Below are positions 9,201 through 64,000 of a stretch of DNA of 64,000 bases, in pieces (the stretch's first letter is position 1; each line of letters begins with the position of its first letter). The notes under the pieces were generated by a model. That model had not been told where the DNA came from, did no database searches, and worked only from the letters and a program-made list of their open reading frames with translations. The DNA comes from Patescibacteria group bacterium (lineage in GTDB: Bacteria; Patescibacteriota; Patescibacteriia; UBA9934), in contig JBAZWW010000003.1 in the NCBI GenBank assembly GCA_041660165.1, forward strand, positions 68,352 to 132,351. The letters run 5' to 3'. A program made the translations under genes and the position numbers.

Positions 9201-11333
9201 TCTGCGGCCGGTTCAAATCTGACCGTTGATTCCGGAACAACAGGATCGGTTTTCCTGGGAACAGGCATAGCAGCAAAGACGATTACTATCGGAAATGGAG
9301 CGGATGACACGTTCTCGCTTAACTCCTCGGCTCTTGTTGTCTCAACGGCTGGAGCATTGACGGGTGTGGCTTCGCTTGACACCGTCGCAACATCAGCAAC
9401 CGCCTTTACCTTCGCCGGTGCCGGAGCTATTTCTTCAACAACATCATCTGCCATGACGATCGATTCCGGTTCAACGGGTGACGTGAACCTTGGTACTGGC
9501 GGTACGGCAAAAACGGTGAATGTAGGTAACGTAACGGGAGGTACGACATTGAACTTGAAATCAGGGACAGGCGGTATTTTGATGACGGTTGACAGCACTG
9601 CGTCAAGCGGCCAGGTACGTATTGGCAACAGCGCAACCGCCACGCCGGATTTATTAGTACTCGATAACGGAACGGCAGACCCAACCGGAGTGAATGGTGG
9701 GATGTATTACTCGACGGCCACAAACAAGTTCCGTTGTTATGAAAATGGCGCGTGGGCAAATTGCATAGGCGGTGGAACGAGCTCGACATCAAAATTCGTT
9801 GTGAAGGGTGCAGATGAAAATGTTCCAACAGGGAACACGCTCCAAACTGATGATGCACTGACGTTTGCGGTGGGAGCAAGCGAAACATGGGTGTTCCAAT
9901 TCAATCTCATGGTTGATAACTTGAGTAGCACGGCACCTGATTGGCAAGCAGCAATTTTGGGCGCATCGGGTTGGACCTGTAACTTCATCATGCACGGCGA
10001 GGAACCAGGCAGCTCTGCCTTCCCACAGTCAGCGGGAACCGATTGTGACAACGTGCCTACCGCGGTAGCAGACGGCACAATTGCTTCCAACGGTGGAATT
10101 CCATTTGAGGTAGTGTTGCAGGGAAGTATTACAACAACGAGCAGTGGATCAGTTACGCTGGAATGGGCTCCAAACACCAGCGGAAGCCTAACGGTGAAAG
10201 CGGGAAGCTTTGTTATCGCGCAGAAAGTTGGCGGTGCTGACTTGGCTGAAGTGTATTACACGAGGGATTCTGGAATGAGACCCGGAGATGTGGTGAGCAT
10301 TGATGGATCTATAGCGTCAGGGGTTAAGAAATCAACCGTTGCGCGTGATCCTAAGGTGATTGGCATTATTTCAACAAAACCGGGGTTGATCCTTGGCGAC
10401 GCAGAAGTGAACACGGAAGATTTCCCGGTTTTTGTAGCCCTGTCCGGAAGAGTGCCGGTGAGGGTAGTTACAGAAAATGGTTCGATTGGAGTTGGCGATT
10501 ACCTCACACCCGCTTCAGAACCGGGCACGGCCATGAAATCCGATGGGACAGGCCCTGTTATTGGACAGGCCATGTCTGCGTATGACGGCGAGGGGATTGG
10601 CACGGTTCTTGCCTTCGTTAAGAGTTTTGACTTGGGAGATGAGAGGCTGGTGCTTCTAGGAGACATCTCGCCAAAGCCGAAGGCCGACGGATCAGACAAT
10701 GGTCTTTCCACGTTCGTTGCCATGCTTCAGGCTGAGACGGCGCATGACCCTGTGATAATCATTGGCGAGAAGATTGCAGGCGGAAAGGACTTCCTTACAG
10801 ACTTTGTCTCCGCTCGCGTTACAGCAATCCGCGGATACTTTGATGAAGTGTTCGCAAAGAAAGTGCACACGGAACAGCTTTGTGTGAAGAAGGCGGATGG
10901 TACGGAGGCGTGTTTTGACGGAGACCAATTGCAACAGGCAATCAATGGGGAAGGGCCTCTAGCGAATTTCTCGGCGCCATCGAATAGCCCGGCACCTGCT
11001 CCGGCACCGGAGACCTTGACGTCGATGACCGATGTGATTGCGCCGACAGAAACAGCAACGCCGGAAATCATAGCCCTTCCTGCTGACGTGTCTTCTGACA
11101 CGGTACCAAATGAAGCAACGACAGATACTTCGGCTCCTGTAGTGGAGACGGTTCCAATTGTGGACGCCCCGGTTTCCGCCGAGGAACCGGTGAGCGAGCC
11201 TGTTGTCATTGAAGCGCCTGCGGGTGTTCCTGACATTGTGCCAGCGCCCTTGGACGTAGCCCCTGTGAGTGAGCCGGCACCAGCGCCAGAATCTGCACCA
11301 GAATCGGCTCCTGCTCCTGACCCAGCTCCTTAA
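3243..11333 (+). CDS. giant (2696 aa) secreted Thr/Gly-rich repetitive cell-surface protein
   Basis: N-terminal signal/TM; five copies of a module [21 protein letters not shown]...TITG.A.GADGR..R..NASSS...ANRIITGTG; three copies of a YYN...[15 protein letters not shown] module; a near-identical roughly 330-bp internal duplication (about 4200-4450 and 8210-8460); a globular C-terminal domain; an APAPAP Pro-rich tail. Confidence 0.8.
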
Positions 11334-26367: not shown

Positions 26368-26428
26368 CGTCCCACTCTGAGCGAGAGCGAAGAGTCCGAC
26401 CCTCACGTCTGAAAGTCGGATCCTTCGC

Positions 26429-27043
26429 ATGGCTCAGGATGGGAATAGGATCGACATGGCCACTTTTTCGACCATCCTGTTGCTTCTCTTCGCCATCTTT
26501 CTTACTTTTTTTGTTTTGCCGTTTGTATTTCTCTTGGCCACAAGCATCATCTGGAATGGCGCGCCGTTTGTGCCGGTGCCATCGAGGGCCGTGCCAGGGA
26601 TCGTTGAGGCCCTTTTTGCGACGAAGGGGTTTAGCATCGCCAAACCCGTACATGCGCAAAGGGCCGTGGTGTATGATATGGGCTGTGGCGATGGGCGAGT
26701 GTTATGCTCGGCTGTGCGCTCGAATCCCAATGTTCGAGCAGTAGGCATCGAGTGTGCCTTATTGCCATATGCGCTTGCCAGGATTCGAGCAAGAAATCTG
26801 CCGATTGAGATACGTCGAAAAGACTTTTTTCAGGAGGATCTTTCGCAGGCAACTCACGTGGTCACCTATCTCTTCCCTGAACTAATGGCTCGCGTCGAGC
26901 AGAAACTTGCCGTCGAGCTGAAGCCAGGGACTCGAGTAGTCGCCATCGACTTTCCTTTGCCAACCTGGAAACCGATTGAGGTTATAAAGCAAAAAGTGCC
27001 GGGACTGAAGAGGGGAACGAATCTGTATATTTATCAACTATGA
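26429..27043 (+). CDS. membrane-anchored SAM-dependent methyltransferase (alternative start 26456)
   Basis: N-terminal TM helix followed by VYDMGCGDGRV motif I; the stop overlaps the next gene. Confidence 0.5.
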   Translation: MAQDGNRIDMATFSTILLLLFAIFLTFFVLPFVFLLATSIIWNGAPFVPVPSRAVPGIVEALFATKGFSIAKPVHAQRAVVYDMGCGDGRVLCSAVRSNPNVRAVGIECALLPYALARIRARNLPIEIRRKDFFQEDLSQATHVVTYLFPELMARVEQKLAVELKPGTRVVAIDFPLPTWKPIEVIKQKVPGLKRGTNLYIYQL

Positions 27044-36675: not shown

Positions 36676-36822
36676 GTGTCCGGTCCTACTCCGACGACAG
36701 GAGGAGTAGCCTTGGATGCCATTGGATAAGGATTCTGACAAATTACAGTAAGCCAATTCTATCCCTCGCTTTGCTCGGGATGGGATCCATCGGCTCGGGG
36801 TGGGAAGTTAGAAATACACGCT

Positions 36823-38031
36823 ATGCCGAAGTTCAAAGACTTTCTCATTCTTCTCTTGGCCGTTTTGCCAACTTATCTTTTGCGTTTTCATCTTGGGCCG
36901 GTGCCAACTACTGTGCTCGAAATATATATATTGTTGATTATTGGGTACTGGTTTATTTTTGAGCAGGGTTATCGGTTAGATTTCTTGCGAACAATGGGCG
37001 CGTACCGGGTGCCATTCCTACTTCTCCTCGCTACTTCATGTTTTGCCGTGGCCGTGGCGCCGGATCCGATCTCGGCACTCGGCACCTGGAAGGCATTTTA
37101 TGTCGAGCCGATTTTGTTGTTTTTCGTTTTTCGTTCAACGTTCCTCGCGCGCGAGGATTGGACGCTCGCCCTTGGCGCTCTTGGCATCTCGGTGATTTCT
37201 ATTTCGATCTTTGCCGTTTTCCAACGAGTGACGGGCCTCGGCATTCCGGTGCCATGGGATATCGAGCTTCGAGCAACCTCGATCTTTGATTTCCCGAACG
37301 CCGTTGGCTTATTTGTCGGTCCGGCGGTTGCCGTGTTTGTCGTGCTCGCTGTAGACAAGGCTCGAGCACTCCGGGAACGAGTATTTTTCGGCATCTCAGC
37401 CATGTTCGGTGTCATCGCGATTGTTCTCTCGCAAACCGAGGCGCTATTCATTGCCTTGCCGGTAGCGTTTCTGTTCTCGCTTTTGCTGTCGAGCGCCCCG
37501 AAGAAGCTCAAGCTCGGCATCATTGGCGCGAGCATTTTCCTTGGCGTCATCGCCTTTGCGGGCAGTTCGACCGTTCGTGAGAAGCTGCTGCTTGAAGACC
37601 TTTCCGGTCAGGTTCGCCGTTCACAGTGGACGGAAACACTCGCCCTTCTAAAAGATCATCCCATTTTTGGCGCTGGCCTCCAGGGCTATCCCGCTGTTTT
37701 TGCTAAGTACCATGACCCGCGTCTGTACGAAATCTTCCAGTACCCGCATAACATTTTGCTGAATTTTTGGGTTGAGCTTGGCTTCCTTGGCGTGATCACG
37801 CTCGTTGTTTTCATTCTTTCAGTTCTTCAGGTGACATATATGCGCCGGACAGACATTTTTAGCCTCGTAGCCTTTGCCGGACTCGCCACCATGTGTATCC
37901 ACGGTCTGGTTGATGTGCCATTTTTCAAGAATGATCTGGCGGTACTGACGGTGTTCTTGTTGGCCCTGAGCTCGACCTCCTCTGGCTCCTCCTTGGAAAG
38001 GAGGAGGATCACTTATGACCCTGATCTATAA
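36823..38031 (+). CDS. O-antigen ligase/polymerase-like (Wzy_C) membrane protein
   Basis: Multi-TM with a central periplasmic loop; motifs SQTEALFIALP and FGAGLQGY; the C-terminal tail SSLERRR is encoded by the hairpin at 37987-38007. Confidence 0.65.
   Translation: MPKFKDFLILLLAVLPTYLLRFHLGPVPTTVLEIYILLIIGYWFIFEQGYRLDFLRTMGAYRVPFLLLLATSCFAVAVAPDPISALGTWKAFYVEPILLFFVFRSTFLAREDWTLALGALGISVISISIFAVFQRVTGLGIPVPWDIELRATSIFDFPNAVGLFVGPAVAVFVVLAVDKARALRERVFFGISAMFGVIAIVLSQTEALFIALPVAFLFSLLLSSAPKKLKLGIIGASIFLGVIAFAGSSTVREKLLLEDLSGQVRRSQWTETLALLKDHPIFGAGLQGYPAVFAKYHDPRLYEIFQYPHNILLNFWVELGFLGVITLVVFILSVLQVTYMRRTDIFSLVAFAGLATMCIHGLVDVPFFKNDLAVLTVFLLALSSTSSGSSLERRRITYDPDL
37987..38007. repeat. palindromic hairpin CTCCTCC-TTGGAAA-GGAGGAG (family A variant, left flank of DUF559 gene 1)
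   Basis: Perfect 7-bp stem; loop identical to the 63561-63577 copy upstream of the second DUF559 gene. Confidence 0.6.
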
Positions 38032-38410
38032 CCCATCATGGAGCATTGAACGGAGAAAGGAGCTTCGGATGAGAGCAACATTCGCTGAAATTGTGCTTTG
38101 GAATCTTTTGAGAAATAGGCAACTCATGAATGTGAAGTTTCGTCGGCAGTATGGTGTAGACGGGTACATTGTCGATTTTTATGCTGCCCAATTGAAATTT
38201 GCAATTGAGCTTGATGGGGCCGTTCACGATACTGAAGAGGCAAGAAGATACGACCAAATTAGAGACGAGCACTTGAGGGGAATCGGCATCGAAATACTAC
38301 GATTACGAAACGAGGAGGTTGTACTGGGGCAGGAGTCAGCTCTCAAGCGAATCACTGAAGCGATGCGCTCTCGTCAGGCGCGTTACCCCTCCTTACCAAG
38401 GAGGGGATAG
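38015..38410 (+). CDS. DUF559 (Vsr/restriction-endonuclease-like) domain protein
   Basis: Aligns from Met1 with the second DUF559 protein at 63608 (M-T-x-I-x-N-x-x-W-S-(I/L)-E-R-R-(K/R)-(E/D)-L-R, FRRQYG, (I/L)-(I/V/T)-D-F-Y, ELDG); the C-terminal tail RYPSLPRRG is encoded by the hairpin at 38386-38406. Confidence 0.7.
   Translation: MTLIYNPSWSIERRKELRMRATFAEIVLWNLLRNRQLMNVKFRRQYGVDGYIVDFYAAQLKFAIELDGAVHDTEEARRYDQIRDEHLRGIGIEILRLRNEEVVLGQESALKRITEAMRSRQARYPSLPRRG
38386..38406. repeat. palindromic hairpin CCCCTCC-TTACCAA-GGAGGGG (family A variant, right flank of DUF559 gene 1)
   Basis: Perfect 7-bp stem; loop in inverted orientation relative to the left-flank copy. Confidence 0.6.
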
Positions 38411-38433
38411 GGGAGGTATAATCACCTCACACT

Positions 38434-40320
38434 ATGCTCCCTCTTCTCAAACGCGCCTTTTCAGGTTTTCTTTTGCTGGTCACGCTCCTTCTTGGCGTCC
38501 CTTTTACGGCTTTTGCCTCGAGTATTCCTTATTCAGCTCTACGCATAACCACCACCGGCGGGGGGAATATCACTTTGGCGCCGGGGGAGGTGAAGAATAT
38601 TGCCGTTTCTTTTCAAAACAAGGGTTCGCAGACGTGGAAAAATGATGGCAACGGCTACATTTCGCTTTATACCTACGGCCCAAAGTACCGGGCGAGTGTT
38701 TTTGACCCAGGTACCTGGCTCACGCCCTCGCAGGTGAAGCGGATGGGGGAGGAAGGCGTGAAGCCCGGCGCCACGGGCACATTTTTGTTCAGCTTGAAAG
38801 CGCCAAAGACCCTTGGCACATACAAAGAAACTTTCGCCCTGGCGTCTGAGAATATCAATTGGGTTACGGGAGGTGACTTCACTTTGAATATCACCGTGCA
38901 AGCGTCGAGTACTGCCAATGCGCCAGCTGTAGACCCCCGCCCGGACGATCCGGTCGGACGGGCTTCCTCACGTCAGGGTCTGGTTCCCGTTTCCACCGTC
39001 GCTCCCGATGCCTCTATTGGCTACTCAGCCAGTCTGGTCACCCAAACCGCTTCCAAAATGAAGGTCCTGGCTAAGAAAACAATCTCATTTTCGGCCGTTA
39101 TTCAGAACACGGGAACAAAGACATGGAAGAACATTGGGCTCTCGTCTTCAGCCATGAACATTGCTTCTGGGTCGAGTGATTTTAGGAACAGCACATGGTC
39201 TGGCAATCAGGTTGCCCTCCTCTCGCAAACAGTGAAGCCTGGCGCTACGGCCACGGTTCAGTTTTTCTTCACCTCGCCCAGCGTCAACGGAACACATACC
39301 GCGAAGTTTCAGATTACTGCAGACGGCATCAGTATTCCTGACAGCTTCGTGACCATTCCCGTTGAAGTAACCGGCGGATCGGCTGAAGCACTCGACGCCC
39401 CATTAGAAAGCGGGGTTTCCAACCCCTCCTCCGTGCCGGCCGCACTGATAACTGAACCAACTATCCGCGTGGGCGTGTTGATTGTGGACGAGGAGACAAA
39501 AGACGAGGCGGTCATCACCTCATTTGAAAGCGATTTTGATTTAATTGATACAGATGGCACGATCCTTGGTTCTTATCCAAGAGGGAAAGAGATCCGGACG
39601 GCATGGGATGGAGCGAATTATCTCTATAACGACGGTGCACACAAAAAGTCCTCGAAACCGCTCCGTTTCGTTCCAAAGACGCCAAACGCAGTCATGACCA
39701 TTACAAATTTTGATCGTCGGCTCACTCGCGGAACCTCGTTCGCAAACAACACTTTTAGAAACGTACTCGAACTCCGCTACAACACGCCGAATAATCGCAC
39801 TTGGGTTATAAATGAACTCCCGCTCGAATATTATTTACGAGGATTGGCTGAAACGTCTGATTCCTCGCCCGTTGAATTTCAGAAAGCGTTGTTAACCGCG
39901 GCCAGGACATACGCTTTTTATCACTGGACGCACAGCACTAAGCACAGAGCCGAAGGATTCCACGTAGACGCTTACCAAGACCAGGTGTACTGGGGCTATG
40001 ACCAGGAGGCCAGGACTCCGCGTATTACCGGAGGCGTGCAGGCCACGCGCGGTCAGATTGTCACGTACAACGGTGATACCGCCGTCACCTCATTCTTTTC
40101 TCGCTCGGATGGCAGAACTCGCAACTGGTCAGAAGTTTGGGGCGGAAACGTTCCGTATGCCAAATCCGTCCCCGTGCCGTGTGACGTTGGCAAGACTTTG
40201 TGGGGCCACGGCGTAGGCATGTCCGCTTCCGGCGCTCTCTGCATGGCCAAAGACGGTCAGGATTGGCAATCCATTCTCAAATATTTCTACACCGGCGTTG
40301 ATATTTCACAACGCTGGTAA
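38434..40320 (+). CDS. SpoIID/LytB-domain cell-wall protein with N-terminal Ig-like repeats
   Basis: Signal peptide; two TWKN-containing Ig-like repeats; C-terminal SpoIID/LytB-like region (NELPLEYYLRG...YWGYDQE...LWGHGVGMS). Confidence 0.7.
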   Translation: MLPLLKRAFSGFLLLVTLLLGVPFTAFASSIPYSALRITTTGGGNITLAPGEVKNIAVSFQNKGSQTWKNDGNGYISLYTYGPKYRASVFDPGTWLTPSQVKRMGEEGVKPGATGTFLFSLKAPKTLGTYKETFALASENINWVTGGDFTLNITVQASSTANAPAVDPRPDDPVGRASSRQGLVPVSTVAPDASIGYSASLVTQTASKMKVLAKKTISFSAVIQNTGTKTWKNIGLSSSAMNIASGSSDFRNSTWSGNQVALLSQTVKPGATATVQFFFTSPSVNGTHTAKFQITADGISIPDSFVTIPVEVTGGSAEALDAPLESGVSNPSSVPAALITEPTIRVGVLIVDEETKDEAVITSFESDFDLIDTDGTILGSYPRGKEIRTAWDGANYLYNDGAHKKSSKPLRFVPKTPNAVMTITNFDRRLTRGTSFANNTFRNVLELRYNTPNNRTWVINELPLEYYLRGLAETSDSSPVEFQKALLTAARTYAFYHWTHSTKHRAEGFHVDAYQDQVYWGYDQEARTPRITGGVQATRGQIVTYNGDTAVTSFFSRSDGRTRNWSEVWGGNVPYAKSVPVPCDVGKTLWGHGVGMSASGALCMAKDGQDWQSILKYFYTGVDISQRW

Positions 40321-46553: not shown

Positions 46554-47698
46554 AGATTTTTATTGATTTTGACCACACGCTAACCCGGGGCCGGGAGTTT
46601 GGGGATGCCATTTTGGGCGAACTGGGCGGGGAGTCAGCGGAAATTTTGCGCACCGCGCTTCGGGATTTTAGGCAAACGCATGATTTTACGTTGGAAGCCG
46701 TTTCTCAGCTCTTTGAACAGTTCGGCTTTCCGCCTGAGCGAACGATCAGTATGTATGAAGCGTATGCCAAGCGGATGGAGGAGTTTTTGGCGCCAGATGC
46801 CCATGAATTTCTGTCCGCTTTGAAGGCATTGGGCCACGAGCTGATACTCCTCACGCGTTCTCCTGACGTGGAAACATGGCAACGGCCAAAGGTGCTGGCG
46901 TCAGGGCTGAGTGAATATTTTACTGGCATTGAGATTACGAGCGGAGCAAAAGTGGACGTGATAGAGATGCTCGGCCACCAAGAGCCGTTTATATTTATTG
47001 ATGATCTCCCAAAGGAAACGGAAGAAATGCAAGCACGTTTTCCGGTGGCGCTTTGTATTACGCATGAAAAAGGCGCCCCGCTCATGGAGCATCTTTTCAC
47101 TATTGCCGGTTTTGCTAATCGTGACGAGCTAAAAACGCTTCCGTTGCCGATTAATACCGCGATCAACATCGGAAATCTTTCACTCGAGGACGGCGAACAG
47201 CTGGCCGTAACGTTTGGCCTCGACAAAAAAGCAGTCGACGCTTTCAAAAAGCGTTCGTGTGATGAAACGGATGAAGAGCTCATGCGTTTTACGAGTGATC
47301 ACGAGCGGATTTGCCTTGGTTCGTATGAAACTTGGTATGCCAAGGAGCGCTACCCGTTTGGCCTCATGAGCAAGTCCGGCGAACTGGCCGGCATTGCCTG
47401 GTTTGGCCCAAAGGCGTTTCCCTCGATTGAAAAAGCGGGGTTTCAAACCCCGCCCATGACCGCGAACGCCGAGTGGCATACCTTTGCTGTCCGCATGTAT
47501 AACCCGTATCGCGGAAAACGGCTGGCTTTCCCCTTTGCTTCCTTTGTTTTTAAGGCTTACAATACCTTTCTTCCTCCGCATCCGCTTTGGCTTGATACAA
47601 GTCCGGAAAACGCTGGCGCCATTCGGTTATACTCAAAGCTAGGATTCATCGAGCATGGACATCGAGAGGATGGCCGAGTAGTCATGATCCGCCCGTAA
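46550..47698 (+). CDS. HAD-like hydrolase fused to a GNAT acetyltransferase
   Basis: N-terminal DxD motif FIDFDHTL; C-terminal GNAT-like region; contains in-frame palindrome B at 47435-47453. Confidence 0.55.
   Translation: MKIFIDFDHTLTRGREFGDAILGELGGESAEILRTALRDFRQTHDFTLEAVSQLFEQFGFPPERTISMYEAYAKRMEEFLAPDAHEFLSALKALGHELILLTRSPDVETWQRPKVLASGLSEYFTGIEITSGAKVDVIEMLGHQEPFIFIDDLPKETEEMQARFPVALCITHEKGAPLMEHLFTIAGFANRDELKTLPLPINTAINIGNLSLEDGEQLAVTFGLDKKAVDAFKKRSCDETDEELMRFTSDHERICLGSYETWYAKERYPFGLMSKSGELAGIAWFGPKAFPSIEKAGFQTPPMTANAEWHTFAVRMYNPYRGKRLAFPFASFVFKAYNTFLPPHPLWLDTSPENAGAIRLYSKLGFIEHGHREDGRVVMIRP
47435..47453. repeat. palindromic hairpin GCGGGGTT-tca-AACCCCGC (family B, copy 1, in-frame in the HAD-GNAT gene)
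   Basis: Perfect 8-bp stem; encodes KAGFQTPP. Confidence 0.6.
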
Positions 47699-47700
47699 CT

Positions 47701-48981
47701 ATGCCTCGCGTTAAACTGACCGAATTTCGGGCGAAGAAGCTCATCCTCGGCAACACCTACGCCGGTGTTTCTTTTTGTGGTGTGGTGCGTTCTCCCTCTT
47801 TCCAAGAGGGCGTCAGTACGGGTGGGCGTTCCCCCTCTTTCCAAGAGGGTGTCAGGACGGATGGGCGCTCCCCCTCTTTCCAAGAGGGGGCTACGGGGGA
47901 GTCGGTGGTGCGTTGGGTGGTCAAAGTCGATCAAGGTATCAAAAAGCGCTTCAAGCAAGGCCTCGTCAAAGTGAATATCTCGGCGGACGAGATTTTGAGC
48001 GCTGTCGAGCCTTGGAAGGCAAAGGGCTTCTCGCAATTCATTGCCGAGCCGTTTGTCGAGCACTCGGCGAACGAGGAACAGTATCTTTCGCTTGAGCGCG
48101 TGCGTGAGGGGGTTCGCATTTTGCATACCGCCGAGGGCGGAGTTGATATTGAGGCGCATCCGGAAGCTGTCCGATCATATGTCGTCGAAAATGCGGGCGA
48201 GATTTCATTGATCGCTAAAGAGACGAAGATTCCGCAGGCATTCCTTGAACAGTTAATTTCAACTTTTAACGATAAGATGTTTGCATTTCTTGAGATCAAT
48301 CCGCTTGTGATCAAGGGTGATCGAGTCTATTTGCTCGACGCTGCCGTGCTCGTGGACAGCGCAGGAATCTTCTTTGTGCACGGCGCGTGGACGGCGAGTG
48401 ATCTTGTTCTGCCCACCGCCAAGCATCCGGCTGAAGCGCGGGTCGAGGAATTAGCGAAAACCACTCCCGCCTCGCTCAAATTGTCCGTGCTGAATCCTGA
48501 CGGAGCATTGTTTTTCTTGTTGTCTGGCGGTGGGGGATCAATCGTGATCGCAGATACCGTCATGAACAAAAGCGGGGTTTCAAACCCCGCCCACGGCGCG
48601 GGCCAACTGATCGGCAACTACGGCGAGTACAGCGGAGGGCCCACGCGCGAAGAGACGTTTTTGTACACTCGCGAGGTACTCGGTTTGTTGCTCGGATCGA
48701 GCGCGCCGAAGAAGGCGCTCATAATTGCCGGGGGAGTGGCAAACTTTACGGATGTGAAGCGGACGTTTGCAGGCATCATTGACGCGTTGACCGAGCGCTC
48801 AGCCGAACTCCGTAAGCAGGGCGTTAAGGTGTTTGTGCGCCGGGGCGGACCGAATGAACAGGCGGGACTGGCCATGATGCGTGAGTTCCTGACCGCCGAG
48901 GGATTGCTCGGTGCCGTTTATGGATCAGAGGCGGTGATGACTAAGGCGGTAGAAGACGCCATAGCTTTTGTAAAAGTATGA
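47701..48981 (+). CDS. ATP-grasp subunit resembling ATP-citrate lyase beta / succinyl-CoA synthetase beta (AclB-like)
   Basis: ATP-grasp plus CoA-ligase fold; near the N-terminus carries three tandem 13-aa in-frame repeats (SPSFQEGxxTxGR) from element A, and a family B hairpin at 48572-48590. Confidence 0.65.
   Translation: MPRVKLTEFRAKKLILGNTYAGVSFCGVVRSPSFQEGVSTGGRSPSFQEGVRTDGRSPSFQEGATGESVVRWVVKVDQGIKKRFKQGLVKVNISADEILSAVEPWKAKGFSQFIAEPFVEHSANEEQYLSLERVREGVRILHTAEGGVDIEAHPEAVRSYVVENAGEISLIAKETKIPQAFLEQLISTFNDKMFAFLEINPLVIKGDRVYLLDAAVLVDSAGIFFVHGAWTASDLVLPTAKHPAEARVEELAKTTPASLKLSVLNPDGALFFLLSGGGGSIVIADTVMNKSGVSNPAHGAGQLIGNYGEYSGGPTREETFLYTREVLGLLLGSSAPKKALIIAGGVANFTDVKRTFAGIIDALTERSAELRKQGVKVFVRRGGPNEQAGLAMMREFLTAEGLLGAVYGSEAVMTKAVEDAIAFVKV
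47784..47903. repeat. three tandem 39-bp copies of palindromic element A (GGTGCGTT-CCCCCTCTTTCCAAGAGGGGG-CTACGGGGGAGTC)
   Basis: Direct reading of the sequence; in-frame within the AclB-like CDS. Confidence 0.85.
48572..48590. repeat. palindromic hairpin GCGGGGTT-tca-AACCCCGC (family B, copy 2, in-frame in the AclB-like gene)
   Basis: Identical 19-mer, read in a different frame (KSGVSNPAHG). Confidence 0.6.
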
Positions 48982-50798
48982 ACGTCATTGAAACCATAAG
49001 AACGGGGCAGGATGGTATTCTCGTCCTTGGCAACCATCCAGAAATCGTGCAATCCATTTTGGATTTTGATTATTTGTCGGGCAAGGCTCATCCCTCGATT
49101 TTGGGGATTGTGACTCAGAACCGAAAGGCCTTAAAATGTTTTTTTGGCGCGCGGGAGATGCTGGTTCCGTGTTTTAAGAGCGTTAATGCGGTGCCGAAAG
49201 TGATCGGCGAGAATGTGCGCTGGATGCTGAACGCGCAGTCTGGCCGGCGCGCGTATGACTCGACCGTTTCGTTTTTCGAGGCCTTTCCGAAGGCACTCGG
49301 CGGGCACATTTTTGCGGAGAATATGCCGGAGATCCACGCGACCGAGCTGATTCGCCGTTATGGATTCTCGAAACTCATCGCTGGGCCATCCGGCGTTGGT
49401 CTCCTCGTCCCTGGCCATCTCAAACTTGGCGCCAGCGGGGGAGTGGGCGTGCCCCAGCTTGTGCAGGGGAAACTAGCGAATCCTGGCTCGGTCGCCGTTG
49501 TCTCGACATCTGGCGGAATGACGAACGAGTTGATTGTGGCCGTGGCGAATGCGGGCAAGGGGACCTCGTTTTCCGTTTCTATCGGCGGGGATAGGTTTCC
49601 GATCACTTCGCTAACTGATGTGTTGATGCTGGCGGAGGGAGACGCGCAGACAGAAGCGATCGTCTATTTCGGCGAGCTTGGCGGAGCGGACGAGTATGAG
49701 ATTGTGAAATTACTCGACGAGAAAAAGCTGACGAAGCCAATCATTTGTTATATTGCCGGGATCATTGACGAAGCTTTTGATCAGCACATGCAGTTTGGCC
49801 ACGCCAAGGCACTGGTAGCGCATAAAGATGAGAGCGCTCGAGCGAAAAGAGTTGCGCTCGCAAAAGCCGGAGCCATTGCCCCGGAGACGTTCCCTGAGTT
49901 TCTCTCGGTCATCCCAAGCATCAATATCATCTCGAGCGGAGCGAGAGATTTGATTGGCCAATCAGATCCTTCGCCTGTCAAACAAGCTCAGGATGACGCT
50001 TACATTAAACCCCTTATGGAAAGACAAAAAAGTATTCTCTCGACACGAAAAATTGTTGACCTAGAATCCGTTCCGCAGTACGTCAAAGACGGCAAGCTGG
50101 CTAAACCGCGGGCGAATGCGTTCGCCTCGGCTTCTCTGCGAGCACTGCTCGGTCGTGAACCTTCAGCCCTAGTTTCGGCCTTTGTTGAGAACATTTTCGA
50201 GTTATTGATCGATCACGGCGGGAACGTTTCCGGCGCGGTGAACACCATGATTACCGCCAGGGCCGGCAAAGATCTCGTCTCCTCGCTCGCCTCAGGCTTG
50301 TTAACGATCGGTCCGCGTTTTGGTGGGGCGGTCAATGATTCAGCCAAGACCTGGATGCAGGGCGTAGTGTCAAAAAAGTCCGCCTCTGACTTTGTTGAGG
50401 AGAAAACCAAAGCTGGCGATCTGCTCGCGGGCATTGGACATAGAAAATATCGTGTAGGCATTCCTGATCCACGCGTAGCTTCCTTGTCCGAGTTTGCTTC
50501 GCTCCTTTCAAGTCATCCGCATTACGATTTCGCGCGAGCAGTCGAGGCAGTGACCACGAGCAAGAATGGCAACCTCATCTTGAACGTGGACGGCGTCATG
50601 GCTTCGCTCCTCCTAGACATTCTTGCCGAGTCCGATAAATTCTCGCCCGAAGAACTTCAAGAACTGGTTGACGCTGAATTCTTTAACGCCCTCTTTGTCA
50701 TCCCCCGCACCGTTGGCTTCATTTCACACTTTATCGAACAGAAGAGGAACGACGAGGGACTATTCCGCTTGCCGGACGAGCTGTTGTTTGAGAGATAG
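48978..50798 (+). CDS. ATP-citrate lyase alpha-like subunit (SCS-alpha CoA-binding domain plus citrate-synthase-like C-terminal domain)
   Basis: 606 aa; phosphohistidine loop MQFGHAKAL; citrate-synthase-like GIGHRKYRVGIPDPRV; 4-bp overlap with the upstream ATP-grasp subunit. Confidence 0.7.
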   Translation: MNVIETIRTGQDGILVLGNHPEIVQSILDFDYLSGKAHPSILGIVTQNRKALKCFFGAREMLVPCFKSVNAVPKVIGENVRWMLNAQSGRRAYDSTVSFFEAFPKALGGHIFAENMPEIHATELIRRYGFSKLIAGPSGVGLLVPGHLKLGASGGVGVPQLVQGKLANPGSVAVVSTSGGMTNELIVAVANAGKGTSFSVSIGGDRFPITSLTDVLMLAEGDAQTEAIVYFGELGGADEYEIVKLLDEKKLTKPIICYIAGIIDEAFDQHMQFGHAKALVAHKDESARAKRVALAKAGAIAPETFPEFLSVIPSINIISSGARDLIGQSDPSPVKQAQDDAYIKPLMERQKSILSTRKIVDLESVPQYVKDGKLAKPRANAFASASLRALLGREPSALVSAFVENIFELLIDHGGNVSGAVNTMITARAGKDLVSSLASGLLTIGPRFGGAVNDSAKTWMQGVVSKKSASDFVEEKTKAGDLLAGIGHRKYRVGIPDPRVASLSEFASLLSSHPHYDFARAVEAVTTSKNGNLILNVDGVMASLLLDILAESDKFSPEELQELVDAEFFNALFVIPRTVGFISHFIEQKRNDEGLFRLPDELLFER

Positions 50799-50874
50799 TA
50801 CTTTCTCCATCCCGAGCCATGCGAGGGATCCGACTTTCCCTGCGAGAAGTGGGGGGGGGGCGGATAAGGGCGCA

Positions 50875-51942
50875 TTAGCGCGAGATCTCGAGAATCCCCG
50901 TTGGCACCCCGAGCGTCTCAAGCATTTGCTTCGCCTTCTCCTCGCTGGCCGGCATCATTTGGCGTTTTTGGAGGTAGAGCGGTTCGAATTTGAGCGTCAG
51001 TTTGTCAGCCTCGACGGTTAAGCGGACAGCCAGCCCGCTTTTTGTAGCTTCCGAGAAATCTTGATCGAACAAGAAATTGCCGAGCGAATAGACGATCGGG
51101 ACATTTTTGTATGTTTCGACGGTTTCAATGACATGCGGATGTCCGCCAATGACGGCGTCTGCGCCAGCGTCAACAAATTGATGCCCCGCAAAGATCTGTG
51201 AGCTGGACGGATTGTGCTGATACTCCACGCCCCAGTGAGGCATAACGATCACGAAATTGCCGGCGGATTTTTCAAGTTTGATGGCCTCGACAATGCCAGC
51301 GGTTGTTTCGTTAAAAGCGTGGTAGCCAATAAAGGCAAAAGTTATTCCGTTCACGGTTTTGTGGGCTACAAACTTTCCGCCTTCCCACGCATCGCCAAAC
51401 GGAGTCATGCCGGCGTTCGTGATTGTTGTCCTGGTGAGCTCCGCGGTTGCCCGGCCATAATCATCAGCATGATTGTTCGACAATGAAAGCAAGTCGAATC
51501 CTTGGGTGGCGAGCATTGAAACATTGCCGGGCGTGGTGTCAAAGTTCATGACGTTTGTTCCTTCGATGTTTTCTTTTTCGCGTACTGTTCCCTCAAAATT
51601 ACCGATAAGCAGGTCACTATTTGAAAGCAAATCTCCAACCTTCGCAAACGGATATTCGGTGCCGTAAAGTTTTATGTATTGCTCCACGTTTCTTGCGAGC
51701 ATAATGTCGCCCACGAATTCAAGAGTCGTGCTCGAGTCGTTCGGTGAGGGCACGATATCCGCCGTAGGGGTCGATCCATGTATCGACCCCGCAGTGACGA
51801 TGCGATCTCCCGCCATGGTCAGATGCGCCCTTCGAGAGATTTCGATGGACGAATTTGCTTTAGAAAACGGCGATACCACAAGAAATCCGATGAGAACGGT
51901 GAGTCCAAGCGCGGTTAACAGTATGGCGAGTTTTGGGGTCAT
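50875..51942 (-). CDS. CapA/PGA_cap-family metallophosphatase-like protein
   Basis: N-terminal TM; motifs FVGDIM, NFEG, NNHADDYG, GGHPHV; carries in-frame element C at 51767-51790. Confidence 0.7.
   Translation of the reverse strand: MTPKLAILLTALGLTVLIGFLVVSPFSKANSSIEISRRAHLTMAGDRIVTAGSIHGSTPTADIVPSPNDSSTTLEFVGDIMLARNVEQYIKLYGTEYPFAKVGDLLSNSDLLIGNFEGTVREKENIEGTNVMNFDTTPGNVSMLATQGFDLLSLSNNHADDYGRATAELTRTTITNAGMTPFGDAWEGGKFVAHKTVNGITFAFIGYHAFNETTAGIVEAIKLEKSAGNFVIVMPHWGVEYQHNPSSSQIFAGHQFVDAGADAVIGGHPHVIETVETYKNVPIVYSLGNFLFDQDFSEATKSGLAVRLTVEADKLTLKFEPLYLQKRQMMPASEEKAKQMLETLGVPTGILEISR
51767..51790. repeat. palindromic hairpin GGGGTCGAT-ccatgt-ATCGACCCC (family C, copy 1)
   Basis: Perfect 9-bp stem; encodes GSIHGSTPTA on the minus strand. 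Confidence 0.7.
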
Positions 51943-51954
51943 GAACGCATAATC

Positions 51955-53357: not shown

Positions 53358-53410
53358 ATTGTTGATGTAGGGGCCGATTTATATATCGGCCCAGATTATG
53401 ATTATTTCAT

Positions 53411-55261
53411 TTACGTAACGAACGGTAACGTGATCCCCTTAGCCTTGGCCAACCAATAGCCAAGCGCCCCCAAACTGGTAGTGAGTAACCCGCCTCCCAC
53501 CCACGGAATTTGTTTCGTGGGCGGGGGAGCGATGAGATTGTGATTCCTCTCCCCGCTAGGGGAGGAAGTAGGTAGGGGGGTTGTCATATCTGCCGTAGGG
53601 GTCGATCCATGTATCGACCCCGTAAGCACGCTCATCCCCTTCGTCTCCGTTATGGCGAGCGTCCACGCTCCGCTCTTCACTCGCGCCACGCCCGTCACTG
53701 CAATACGGTCGCCGAAGGCCAGGTCAGCAAAGTTGATGGCCACATGCGGAGCAGATGCTATGGCAAGGGTGTCGCCATTTTCGAGTTCCACCGTTACTCC
53801 GCCTTTGGCCATGTCCGTGACCGAGCCTTCCAGACTGAAGTATCCGCCTTGGACAGCTTCGTCGAGTGAGTTAAGCGAGTCTGGCGCCAGCGCGTCCTGG
53901 CCGGTTGTTTTAATGTCCAACCGTTTGCTTATCTTGAGACGCACATAGCCGTCTTTTTGTTGAACCACGCCGGTAACCTGCACGTGTGCCATGTATTTCA
54001 GCTTTGGCCAGTCGGCTTTGTTGAAATACACTTCAAGTCCATTTAGATACATCAGCTGTTTGCCGAATACTCCCGGCAGGCCAACCACTACGCCATCAAC
54101 GGTCACAATTTCTCCATCCGGGACATCGCCGAGTTCTGAGACGTCGAGTACCGTCAGGGTGGTTCCTCTCCCCGTGAGGGGAGAGGCTAGGTGAGGGGTA
54201 GCGGTGGCCGGGGGCAGGGGGGAGGCTACGCTGTCCGCCACCGTTGTTGCGAGCTCCAGCCGAACAGGGCTTGGGGCGGGGGCATCAGGGTTAGTTCCTT
54301 GAGCTTGGTCTTGAACGGCCGGATCAGGGTTGATAACGGCAGGAGTGTTGATTGTCGTCTCATATGTTGTATTCGTTGTGTCGTAGGGGTCGATCCATGT
54401 ATCGACCCTCGTATTAATGGCGAGCGGAGTGGGATCAGATTCAATCCACGTTCCGTCGGGTTGTTTAGCGAGTGATTTTCCTTTTTTCGGCGCCGTTTTG
54501 CCGGTGTACGATATCGCGTCAATCGTTGCTCCGGTTCCATCGAACAGGAAGATTGAGTCGCCATCGTTATTGAGTTTGCCCTTCGGGTTTTGTAGGACAA
54601 AGAAGGCGTGCGCCGGCAGAATCTGATCGGGCAACGGAGTTTTACTTGTCGTCGCATCTTTAACCGTCCACCCGCCGAGAGAGATTTCGTCTTCGGTTGT
54701 GTTGAGAAGCTCAATCCATTCCACACCATCGGCCGGATCAGATACGAATTCATTGATGAGGACGGAGCCAGTGGGATACGGGATTGGCCCGGGTGCCACG
54801 GGCGGTACCACGGGCGCGGTTGATGGCGCGGGCGTTAGGGTGGTCAATGGGGGTGCCGTAGGGGTCGATCCATGTATCGACCCCGCCTCGGTAGGCGTGA
54901 TGATCGGCGCGGGCGCCTCAATCGGCAATGGCTCGATGACCGTGATTGGCGCAACGGGTTCTGGTTCAGGTTCCGGTGCAACTGGTTCCGGTGCCGGCAA
55001 TGGGGCCGTCTGCACCGGACACAGCAGGCACGGATCCCCGGCGTCATCCCCTCCTTGTGAGGGAGGCTCGCCCGTAGGTTGCGAAGTTACGCCCGAGGAG
55101 GGCAGAGGGATGGAGGGGGCCAAGGGGGTGGCTACGTCTCCACCGGTCCCAGCGCTTTCGACGGTTTCGACGATCGCGGTTTCGGATGCGTCTTCTGCTC
55201 TCGCGGGTAGAGGAGACACAAAGGGCAAGAGGGTGAGGATTCCCAAGAGTCCATAGTACAT
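53411..55261 (-). CDS. secreted lamin-tail-domain (LTD) protein, Pro/Thr-rich, with a C-terminal membrane anchor
   Basis: LTD pattern VLINEFVSDPADGVEWIELLNTTEDEISLGGWTVKD...LNNDGDSIFLFD; signal peptide; C-terminal TM; contains three family C and two family D hairpin elements in-frame. Confidence 0.65.
   Translation of the reverse strand: MYYGLLGILTLLPFVSPLPARAEDASETAIVETVESAGTGGDVATPLAPSIPLPSSGVTSQPTGEPPSQGGDDAGDPCLLCPVQTAPLPAPEPVAPEPEPEPVAPITVIEPLPIEAPAPIITPTEAGSIHGSTPTAPPLTTLTPAPSTAPVVPPVAPGPIPYPTGSVLINEFVSDPADGVEWIELLNTTEDEISLGGWTVKDATTSKTPLPDQILPAHAFFVLQNPKGKLNNDGDSIFLFDGTGATIDAISYTGKTAPKKGKSLAKQPDGTWIESDPTPLAINTRVDTWIDPYDTTNTTYETTINTPAVINPDPAVQDQAQGTNPDAPAPSPVRLELATTVADSVASPLPPATATPHLASPLTGRGTTLTVLDVSELGDVPDGEIVTVDGVVVGLPGVFGKQLMYLNGLEVYFNKADWPKLKYMAHVQVTGVVQQKDGYVRLKISKRLDIKTTGQDALAPDSLNSLDEAVQGGYFSLEGSVTDMAKGGVTVELENGDTLAIASAPHVAINFADLAFGDRIAVTGVARVKSGAWTLAITETKGMSVLTGSIHGSTPTADMTTPLPTSSPSGERNHNLIAPPPTKQIPWVGGGLLTTSLGALGYWLAKAKGITLPFVT
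53544..53566. repeat. palindromic hairpin TTCCTCTCCCC-gct-AGGGGAGGAA (family D, copy 1)
   Basis: Near-perfect stem; encodes PSGERN in the LTD protein. Confidence 0.55.
53598..53621. repeat. family C hairpin, copy 2
   Basis: GGGGTCGATCCATGTATCGACCCC, identical to copy 1. Confidence 0.7.
54165..54186. repeat. palindromic hairpin CCTCTCCCC-gtg-AGGGGAGAGG (family D, copy 2)
   Basis: Perfect 9-bp stem; encodes ASPLTGRG in the LTD protein. Confidence 0.6.
54386..54408. repeat. family C hairpin, copy 3
   Basis: GGGGTCGATCCATGTATCGACCC. Confidence 0.7.
54861..54884. repeat. family C hairpin, copy 4
   Basis: GGGGTCGATCCATGTATCGACCCC. Confidence 0.7.
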
Positions 55262-55465
55262 AGTGTTTAATTGTTAAGGATCAGCAAACCGGATTCAACA
55301 AACGCGCGTTCAAACAACAAACCCCACAGCTATCCTTCGGGGAAAGGAAGCCATGGGGAGTTTGTTTGTACATTCATTGCAACATATCTCCGGAGCTGTT
55401 CGAGTGTGGGGTGGGGATAACTAAAAACAACGGCTCTGCGCCGATGTTTTATGAATATTTCTTTT

Positions 55466-60781: not shown

Positions 60782-61729
60782 ATGACCAAGAAACGCCTTG
60801 CCATTTTAACTGGCGGGACAAGCGCTGAGCGTGACATTGCTCTGGCGTCCGCAAAAACAGTCGCTGATCTGCTTGCCGAACGGTATGACATAACCAAGTT
60901 CGATTTTCCAAGTGAGATTGACGCATTCCTAGCGCAACGAGATACCTTCGATGTCGCAATCCCCATCTTCCACGGTAAGGGCGGGGAAGACGGAACCGTG
61001 CAGGGCTTCTTGAAAACGCTCGGCGTGCCATTTCTATTCTCGGACGTCACCGCACATGCCATTGGCATGGACAAGACCTTGGCGAAAACCGTTGTGTCTA
61101 CCGTCGGTCTTCATACGCCGAGCTCGATCGTTCTGACTCGTGTTGAGTTCCTTCAGGGTGGCTCCCCCTCTTTCCAAGAGGGGGCCAGGGGGAGTCTCGG
61201 GATGGTCAGGGTGGTCAAGCCTCTGGATTCCGGCAGTACCCTCGGCATCACCATCGTCCGCTCTTCCAACGACCTACAGTCAGCCCTCGAAAACGCTTTT
61301 AAGCATTCCGATAAAGTGCTCATTGAGGATTTCATTGGAGGCGACGAATTCACCGTGGCTGTGATCGACGAACATGGCGAATCAATCGCCTTGCCCGTGA
61401 TTCAAATCGTCTCGCCGAACGGGATATACGATCACTCCGCCAAGTACGGCCCACAGCCAGCCGAGAAACTTTGCCCGGCGCCGATTAGCGAAGATCTCAC
61501 TTTACGCCTTCAAGAATCCGCCGTCACCGCGCACAAAGCCATCGGCGCCAGGCATTTGTCGCGGACAGATTTCATCGTTGACCGAGAGGGGACAATTTGG
61601 TTCCTTGAAATCAACACCATTCCCGGCCAATCCGTCTTATTTCCAAAAGCCGTAAAAGCATCAGGCCGTGATTTTGCAGAGATATTTGCCGACTGGATTG
61701 AGTCTGTCTACCTTGCCAAATCCTCCTGA
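60782..61729 (+). CDS. ddl: D-alanine--D-alanine ligase
   Basis: Ddl N-terminus RLAILTGGTSAERDIALASAK, ATP-grasp motifs, EINTIPG; carries a 39-bp in-frame insertion of element A (encoding GGSPSFQEGARGS). Confidence 0.9.
   Translation: MTKKRLAILTGGTSAERDIALASAKTVADLLAERYDITKFDFPSEIDAFLAQRDTFDVAIPIFHGKGGEDGTVQGFLKTLGVPFLFSDVTAHAIGMDKTLAKTVVSTVGLHTPSSIVLTRVEFLQGGSPSFQEGARGSLGMVRVVKPLDSGSTLGITIVRSSNDLQSALENAFKHSDKVLIEDFIGGDEFTVAVIDEHGESIALPVIQIVSPNGIYDHSAKYGPQPAEKLCPAPISEDLTLRLQESAVTAHKAIGARHLSRTDFIVDREGTIWFLEINTIPGQSVLFPKAVKASGRDFAEIFADWIESVYLAKSS
61157..61196. repeat. palindromic element A inserted in-frame in ddl
   Basis: GGTGGCTCCCCCTCTTTCCAAGAGGGGGCCAGGGGGAGTC. Confidence 0.85.
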
Positions 61730-63535: not shown

Positions 63536-63545
63536 TGCGACGCGC

Positions 63546-63604
63546 GACTCCCCCGTAGCCCCCTCTTGGAAAGAGGGGGAGCGCACACCCTGACAGCACG
63601 CACC
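63546..63604. repeat. palindromic element A (inverted orientation, left flank of DUF559 gene 2)
   Basis: GACTCCCCCGTAGCCCCCTCTTGGAAAGAGGGGGAGCGCACACC..GCACGCACC is the reverse complement of element A. Confidence 0.8.
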
Positions 63605-63607
63605 ACT

Positions 63608-64000
63608 ATGACGGAAATATTCAACCAAAAATGGAGCCTGGAGAGGCGCAGAGATTTACGAAATGGAATGACCAAACCGGAGATCTTGCTGTGGTTAGCT
63701 ATCAAGGCAGATCAACTTGGCGTTCGTTTTAGAAGGCAGTACGGAATTGGTCGGTACATAACCGATTTTTATGTCCCGCGATTACGACTCGTGGTTGAAT
63801 TGGACGGCTCGCAGCATTACACCCCGGAAGGTAGGCGATATGATGAGATTCGAACCAAATCTTTCGAAAGCATCGGCATCCAGGTCATCCGTTTCGCAAA
63901 CGACGAAGTTTGCAGAAATCTGCACGGCGTTCTTCAGCGTCTCCGCATTGCGATAGCGGACCGTCAGAATGGTCAGGTGCGTTCCCCCTCTTTCCAAGAG
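63608..64000 (+). CDS. DUF559 (Vsr/restriction-endonuclease-like) domain protein, 3'-truncated by the window end
   Basis: ATG at 63608; MTEIFNQKWSLERRRDLR...FRRQYGIGRYITDFY...VVELDG, homologous to the protein at 38015; the ORF continues into element A (…QNGQVRSPSFQE). Confidence 0.6.
   Translation, partial: MTEIFNQKWSLERRRDLRNGMTKPEILLWLAIKADQLGVRFRRQYGIGRYITDFYVPRLRLVVELDGSQHYTPEGRRYDEIRTKSFESIGIQVIRFANDEVCRNLHGVLQRLRIAIADRQNGQVRSPSFQE
63976..64000. repeat. palindromic element A (forward orientation, right flank of DUF559 gene 2; truncated by the window end)
   Basis: GGTGCGTTCCCCCTCTTTCCAAGAG. Confidence 0.8.

Follow-up and report, generated by a model that had tools for sequence, protein, structure and literature searches.

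The 64,000-nt stretch of DNA analysed here (the window), from contig JBAZWW010000003.1 of a Patescibacteria group bacterium, contains a gene for D-alanine--D-alanine ligase (ddl) that carries a short GC-rich palindromic repeat, Element A, inside its reading frame. We assign a probability of roughly 0.78 to the reading that this segment is an in-frame copy of a non-autonomous selfish DNA, which acts in the manner of the Rickettsia palindromic elements (RPEs). That genes of the DUF559 nuclease family spread or maintain it is a considerably less certain part of this reading. The positions of the individual features are collected in Table 1.

The host gene is a D-Ala-D-Ala ligase, as an earlier interpretation made without database searches (the sequence-only reading) had proposed. 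The open reading frame (ORF) matches both Pfam domains of the family well above their cut-offs, i.e., Dala_Dala_lig_C (5.5e-42; 144 bits against 24) and Dala_Dala_lig_N (8.9e-17; 62 bits against 34.6). Its closest match in the PDB by phmmer is E. coli DdlB (5.7e-51), and the 100% identical protein P0001 is annotated as a Patescibacteria Ddl. Residues E16, K98, K146, S152, E182, K221/Y222, R261, D263, E276 and N278 of the window protein align identically to E15, K97, K144, S150, E180, K215/Y216, R255, D257, E270 and N272 of DdlB in an alignment matched by eye. We take this set to comprise catalytic and ATP-binding residues of DdlB; most of it is invariant across an alignment of 34 Patescibacteria Ddl proteins. 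An AlphaFold2 (AF2) model of the window Ddl has a mean predicted local distance difference test score (pLDDT) of 89.6 and overlays on E. coli DdlB (2dln) in Foldseek with a TM score of 0.87-0.89 and an r.m.s.d. of 2.5 Å. Moreover, comparison with an insert-bearing ortholog at locus L001 yields a dN of 0.105 and a dS of 0.95 and thus a dN/dS of 0.11, which shows that purifying selection has acted on the gene while it carried the insert. Judging from sequence and model, the window Ddl appears to be functional despite the insert.

Element A was first delimited as 40 nt at 61157-61196 (GGTGGCTCCCCCTCTTTCCAAGAGGGGGCCAGGGGGAGTC), read as codons 126-138 (GGSPSFQEGARGS). It introduces neither a frameshift nor a stop, so that the claim of an in-frame element inside ddl is borne out. 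The range of similarity to other copies is wider (~61153-61205), with a 9-nt module on either side of a 35-nt core: TCAGGGTGG precedes the core and TCGGGATGG follows it, the latter position being occupied by TCAGGGTGG in the L001 ortholog. We considered the repeated TCAGGGTGG as a target-site duplication and rejected this, as copies at unrelated loci (L056 13205, L061, L026 and L024) are flanked by it as well; because of this recurrence we regard it as part of the element. A third TCAGGGTGG module at the downstream junction may be either junction microhomology or a further part of the element. The core forms a 9-bp hairpin, whose 5' C-run can alternatively pair with a second G-run at 61188-61194.

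The ddl copy is one of several. The 21-nt core CCCCCTCTTTCCAAGAGGGGG has eight matches in the window with up to three mismatches, on both strands, where shuffled sequences lead us to expect 0.00, and hairpins of the Element A type with a pyrimidine arm likewise occur eight times, against 0.06 in shuffles. Identity among the copies amounts to 94-96% across 32-46 nt. Three of them form a tandem array, with a period of 39 nt, in an ATP-citrate-lyase-like ORF, where the inserts were judged from Pfam and human ACLY alignments. This array lies directly ahead of the VVKVDQ strand of an ATP-grasp protein, the same structural position as in Ddl, and it ends in GGGTGGTCAAAG (V-V-K), resembling the ddl junction GGGTGGTCAAGCC. 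All in-ORF copies of the window use the same frame, which reads SPSFQEG. Two further copies accompany a DUF559 gene (see below), and a hairpin at 54165-54186 that is preceded by an Element A module resembles a compensated variant of this family. Three independent assemblies (L056, L057 and L058) contain the identical ddl gene, and the 82%-identical L001 ortholog bears the insert as well; thus, the insert is not an assembly artefact.

We then placed the insert among the 34 Patescibacteria Ddl proteins. Most of these are 293-301 aa long and have a short, variable linker between a conserved G..T..W region (...T.xW) and an invariant strand (V144-K146-P147), as exemplified by P0003 (VVLRDDQHVDVGSLDFPC) and P0006 (VYPENGVVEFPC). 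The segment GGSPSFQEGARGS occurs in the linker of only the window protein (identical to P0001) and P0002, which is 82% identical to the window Ddl by BLASTP and 81% in the 34-protein alignment. The closest insert-free orthologs share 67-69% identity; the window protein exceeds these by 10-16 residues net, and by as many as 18 with the 9-nt modules included, so that the earlier estimate of about 13 added residues was a fair one. Residues 126-138 align to about residues 125-137 of DdlB, directly ahead of the strand with the conserved VVKP lysine K146, and the insert stops four to eight residues short of this lysine. The insert had been placed between the N-terminal and central domains. It does lie near that boundary; it is not strictly inter-domain and sits instead right where the central domain begins, given a boundary in DdlB that we presume to be near residue 121.

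A phmmer alignment places the insert opposite the DdlB segment EKGLSDKQLAEISALG, with a single gap. We rejected homology to this DdlB helix, as near orthologs lack the segment and the DNA of the insert is a copy of a repeat; the agreement in length is a coincidence. E. coli DdlB, the unrelated Ddl compared here, thus offers no segment of the same length and sequence at this position: its segment has about the same length but an unrelated sequence, and close relatives lack it. The linker has received other DNA, too. In P0025 and P0028, different palindromic repeats add 20-40 residues to it. Because unrelated palindromes have colonised the same loop independently, we consider the Ddl linker a structurally permissive site and a hotspot of insertion.

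To follow the element beyond this lineage, a 19-nt core was scanned against 185,579 species genomes. It was found at 53 loci, compared to about four for a random 19-mer by our own estimate, in hosts that include Uhrbacteria, Magasanikbacteria, Saccharibacteria, Planctomycetia, Caedibacter, Cysteiniphilum, Bacteroidota, Chlamydiae-like bacteria, Nostoc and others. On the 3' side of the core, 30 of 60 matches have a second G-run, GGGGWGT, that lay outside the query; on the mirror side, used as control, it is seen in 9 of 60. Many cores lie in long open frames, namely in dnaX, mnmA, dinG, tsaD (twice), leuS, rumA and an ABC-F ATPase, and furthermore in genes for an RND pump (acrB), a glycosyltransferase, a methyltransferase and a reverse transcriptase, all as recognised from their translations. 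The core is read in at least five frames and in both orientations (SPSFQEG, PPLSKRG, PLLERGG, PSWKEG and PPLGKRG), and all intragenic copies examined lie in an open frame. Since it spans phyla and is read in so many frames, Element A is a DNA element and not a protein motif. By hand translation, the 35-nt core is free of stops in all six frames. The RPE-like behaviour that had been claimed for the element is therefore supported as a mode of working, by the stop-free core, by in-frame copies in many housekeeping genes and by the presence of the same family beside DUF559; by its length and host, the element is not a member of the RPE families themselves.

A further set of observations concerns DUF559. 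The DUF559 gene at 63608 is flanked by inverted Element A copies of ~50 nt, whose TCAGG ends point toward the gene, and a second DUF559 gene of the window is accompanied by variant hairpins on both sides (Table 1). Among the 53 genome loci of the core, six have a DUF559 gene within 300 nt. We further inspected a metagenomic sample of 80 DUF559 loci (L061-L140). Pyrimidine-arm hairpins occur within 150 nt of DUF559 at 58 of these 80 loci, on both sides at 29, and their density is ninefold higher in DUF559 flanks (4.1 per kb) than elsewhere (0.47 per kb). The flanking stems differ across loci and match within a locus, the loop upstream is often the reverse complement of the one downstream, and the hairpin variants co-vary with the DUF559 gene copy. 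We therefore propose a DUF559-associated hairpin family, which consists of a pyrimidine-arm/purine-arm hairpin followed by a second G-run, located beside or flanking DUF559. By analogy, DUF559 might recognise or mobilise its cognate hairpin, a notion to which we give somewhat less than even odds.

The DUF559 cassette (63545-64000; L056 12760-13250) is bordered on one side by a 186-aa ORF and on the other by a SPOUT methyltransferase gene; between the orthologous genes of the relative L002 (4335-5522), there is instead a Y1_Tnp gene together with a 202-aa ORF. We regard this slot as a variable site that houses small mobile genes. A REP-associated tyrosine transposase (RAYT; REP, repetitive extragenic palindrome) was considered as the mobiliser of Element A and rejected, given that the window has no Y1 transposase: a search for Y1_Tnp homologs in the window found none (best tblastn E 0.27). 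The palindrome that precedes the Y1_Tnp gene in L002 is a different one, GCGGGGTTTAAACCCCGC.

At the DNA level, the element is more strongly conserved than the rest of its host gene. The ddl genes of the window and L001 share 79% nucleotide identity, and their longest identical run, 47 nt at 61152-61198, coincides with the element. A stretch of 15 codons (125-139) is identical throughout (permutation p = 0.002), and the element shows no synonymous difference in 13.3 synonymous sites, as opposed to a pS of 0.57 outside. This suggests either a constraint on the DNA or RNA hairpin or gene conversion from other copies. The first option leads to the idea that the hairpin is kept for a nucleic-acid role in ddl, be it as an mRNA pause or stability element or as a DNA site that DUF559 recognises for a host function. 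The absence of synonymous change in 15 codons while dS is ~0.95 elsewhere, the exact match between element and longest identical run, the two alternative pairings of the C-run, and the location directly before the VVK strand in both ATP-grasp genes of the window are all in keeping with it. However, unrelated genes harbour the same element, in either orientation and in at least five frames, and most Ddl orthologs lack it. Gene conversion among copies explains the identity equally well, the folding z-scores are unremarkable, and Rfam returned no match. We consider such a role unlikely. As for Rfam, a scan of the whole window detected four tRNAs only at gathering score, and a permissive scan of 61050-61300 gave no match at E<=10.

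Selection on the protein is less probable again. Here, SPSFQEGARGS would restore a surface helix of the DdlB type and would have been selected as protein. AF2 indeed predicts the insert as a helix (residues 129-137) where DdlB also has one, phmmer aligns it to the corresponding DdlB segment, and the SPSFQEG frame is shared by all in-ORF copies of the window. Yet the pLDDT of this helix is low (~61-78), the same DNA reads PSWKEG, PLLERGG, PPLGKRG or PPLSKRG elsewhere, the conservation resides at synonymous sites, and identical DNA is found outside genes beside DUF559. An adaptive helix is thus an improbable account of the insert.

Alternatively, the element might never appear in the protein. 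In yeast mitochondria, GC-rich elements known as 'byps' lie within genes and are bypassed, and a comparable translational bypass, or removal from the mRNA, would join EFLQ directly to VRVVKP. A stable, GC-rich hairpin within a coding region would be suited to this. Against it, the frame is preserved without a stop, the tandem array has a period of exactly 13 codons (39 nt), and every intragenic copy examined is in an open frame. In-frame, stop-free copies would be expected if selection acted on a translated sequence, and bypassed elements would have no need of them; this argues against bypass and leaves it a very small probability. Judging from the open frame, the ddl insert is most likely translated. 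Finally, a chance match or an assembly chimera, for which only the general risk of metagenome assemblies speaks, is hardly credible in view of zero matches expected by chance, three identical assemblies, the insert in a diverged ortholog and 94-96% identity to other copies over 32-46 nt.

We thus favour an in-frame copy of a selfish repeat, and its course may be pictured as follows. Element A, a 35-nt core or ~53 nt with its 9-nt TCAGGGTGG modules, would act as non-autonomous selfish DNA. One copy sits in the length-variable linker before the VVKP strand, with the frame kept, and if translated it would add 13-18 residues. It would be tolerated because the core is free of stops in any frame and the linker accepts insertions, as suggested by the other palindromes in related lineages. 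Since patescibacterial genomes leave little non-coding space, we infer that the copies which persist are those lying in frame in permissive loops of essential genes. The family would be spread or maintained by DUF559 genes, of the Vsr-like PD-(D/E)XK type, which are flanked by cognate hairpins as RAYT genes are by REPs. A broader version is more tentative than the role of DUF559 itself, and the odds are somewhat against it: DUF559 and its cognate C-run/G-run hairpins would constitute an undescribed mobile system across phyla comparable to RAYT/REPIN, solo hairpins including the ddl copy would colonise essential genes of Patescibacteria in frame, and the Ddl linker would be a recurrent landing site, possibly via GTGGTC microhomology with TCAGGGTGG.

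Several observations weigh against the selfish-repeat reading. A ddl allele with an empty site at high identity was not found, and the insertion event is for this reason inferred from orthologs of at most 69% identity. Apart from the element's own 9-nt repeat, no target-site duplication is seen at the ddl copy. DUF559 was not seen within the 8-kb block at 47 of the 53 genome loci; it is a nuclease fold without known transposase activity, and the hairpins could instead be its target, regulator or terminator. Single Element A copies do not fold better than dinucleotide shuffles (minimum free energy z-scores of -0.1 to -1.9), and as C-runs and G-runs pair anyway, folding energy was not used as evidence. 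The extended 53-nt element contains one stop on the reverse strand.

In-frame palindromic repeats in genes are of a kind already known from RPEs, of which Element A is a variant in mode of action. RPEs of ~100-150 bp have been reported from Rickettsia, in frame in coding genes (Ogata et al. 2000, as reviewed in PMC10969869). Both kinds are palindromic repeats found in frame in unrelated housekeeping genes of small genomes with little intergenic space, and both supply extra peptide segments compatible with the fold, which for Element A presupposes its predicted translation. Element A differs in its length of 35-53 nt and its patescibacterial host, and thereby falls outside the length and taxon that define RPEs; its core moreover occurs in many phyla and is tied to DUF559. 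This separation from RPEs is one by description and not by sequence. With the REP/REPIN-RAYT systems, Element A shares a short, GC-rich, imperfect palindrome that is dispersed in many copies, and a linked gene that is flanked by cognate, often inverted copies, with hairpin variants co-varying with the gene copy. In contrast, the linked gene encodes a DUF559 PD-(D/E)XK nuclease and not a Y1 (IS200/IS605-like) transposase, the copies are intragenic and in frame whereas REPs are extragenic, and the GTAG-like/G-run motif comes after the hairpin and not before it.

[quoted passage not shown] MITEs resemble Element A as small non-autonomous repeats within ORFs that add peptide segments; Element A is much shorter and has no terminal inverted repeats beyond its own hairpin and no target-site duplication. 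Coding palindromes are also described in mitochondrial genes of Nematomorpha (PMC6649704). Like the yeast 'byps', these place hairpin-forming DNA in essential coding sequence, while Element A is bacterial, in frame and stop-free and has intergenic copies beside a nuclease gene. An open-literature search of incomplete coverage turned up no account of palindromic repeats in connection with DUF559, nor of palindromes lying in frame in the Candidate Phyla Radiation (CPR) / Patescibacteria.

Table 1. Features of the ddl locus, Element A copies and other repeats (window coordinates unless a locus is given).
Feature	Position	Strand	Details
ddl ORF, D-alanine--D-alanine ligase, host of the insert	60782..61729	+	315 aa; Pfam and DdlB matches; P0001 100% identical
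Element A as first delimited	61157..61196	+	codons 126-138, GGSPSFQEGARGS
Element A, whole range of similarity	61153..61205	+	TCAGGGTGG + 35-nt core + TCGGGATGG, 53 nt; compared with L056 13205, L061, L026, L024, L001
Hairpin in ddl copy	61164..61184	+	9-bp stem CCCCCTCTT / AAGAGGGGG, loop TCC
Third TCAGGGTGG module	61205..61213	+	overlaps V-R-V codons ahead of the conserved VVKP strand
Three tandem Element A copies	47778..47904	+	39-nt period (13 codons each); in frame in ATP-citrate-lyase-like ORF 47701..48981
Element A copy directly upstream of DUF559, inverted	63545..63590	-	96% complementary to copy 47859-47904
DUF559 endonuclease ORF	63608..64000	+	Pfam 2.5e-29; continues past the window, stop at L056 13276 = window 64057
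Element A copy at 3' end of DUF559	63970..64000	+	stops at window end; complete in L056: GGTCAGGTGCGTTCCCCCTCTTTCCAAGAGGGGGCTACGGGGGAGTCTCAGGGTGG
Variant hairpin upstream of second DUF559 (38015..38410)	37977..38013	-	CTCCTCCT-TGGAA-AGGAGGAG
Variant hairpin downstream of second DUF559	38385..38420	+	CCCCTCCT-TACCA-AGGAGGGG + GGGGAGG
Related element	54153..54210	+	5' Element A module GTCAGGGTGG shared, followed by hairpin with other stem (54165-54186, CCTCTCCC-CGTGAG-GGGAGAGG); inside ORF 53414-55273 (-)
GTAGGGGTCGATCCATGTATCGACCCC copies	51764-51791, 53367-53394, 53595-53622, 54383-54410, 54858-54885		
Ddl gene of P0025, with linker repeat	L059 1501-2520		GGGTCACCGAG(A/T)GACCC (GGGTCACCGAGWGACCC), three copies
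Ddl gene of P0028, with linker repeat	L060 914-1876		GTTCGTCACCCGGTGACGAAC, two copies

The window holds further repeats. A second palindrome family, AAAGCGGGGTTTCAAACCCCGCCC, is present at 39407-39432, 47432-47457 and 48569-48594 and in L002 at about 4297-4320, there just upstream of the Y1_Tnp (RAYT-like) gene. It is in frame in three ORFs, where it reads ESGVSNPSS, KAGFQTPPM and KSGVSNPAH, and its copy in the citrate-lyase-like protein falls on a gap of 8 residues in the alignment with human ACLY. That protein belongs to a pair of adjacent ATP-citrate-lyase-like ORFs at 47701-50798, the first with Citrate_synth_N and Citrate_bind and the second with Succ_CoA_lig, Ligase_CoA and Citrate_synt domains; such an enzyme seems unusual for a Patescibacterium with reduced metabolism. 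A third family, GTAGGGGTCGATCCATGTATCGACCCC, is REP-like in that GTAG is followed by a palindrome, and counts five copies. Four of these lie inside the long frames 50878-51954 (-) and 53414-55273 (-); three read (A/T)GSIHGSTPT and the copy at 54383 reads TRVDTWIDPY. Repeats resembling GAAAGTCGGATCCCTCGCATGGCTCGGGATGG occur at the distant sites 26411-26442, 50807-50838 and 36761-36783 in inverted orientation, partly in open frames. Large, diverged direct repeats with units of 57-300 nt and 60-75% identity (families D1-D3, D6, D9 and D13) occur in 3900-9800, inside apparently long, repetitive genes for surface proteins.

Taken together, our analysis indicates that repeat DNA can reside in the reading frames of essential enzymes in ultra-small Patescibacteria, and that new function need not follow where proteins in these genomes are rich in inserts. 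Elements of this kind ought to be recognised by pipelines for annotation and alignment, as the profile search used here matched the insert to a DdlB helix to which it is unrelated. With no synonymous change in the element and a dS near 1 for the gene, ddl moreover offers a handle on selection or gene conversion inside coding sequence. The broader and possibly new point is the pairing of a hairpin family with DUF559 nuclease genes across phyla: DUF559 is a very widespread domain whose function is unknown, and it may act on a cognate hairpin, by recognition or mobilisation, much as RAYTs do with REPs.

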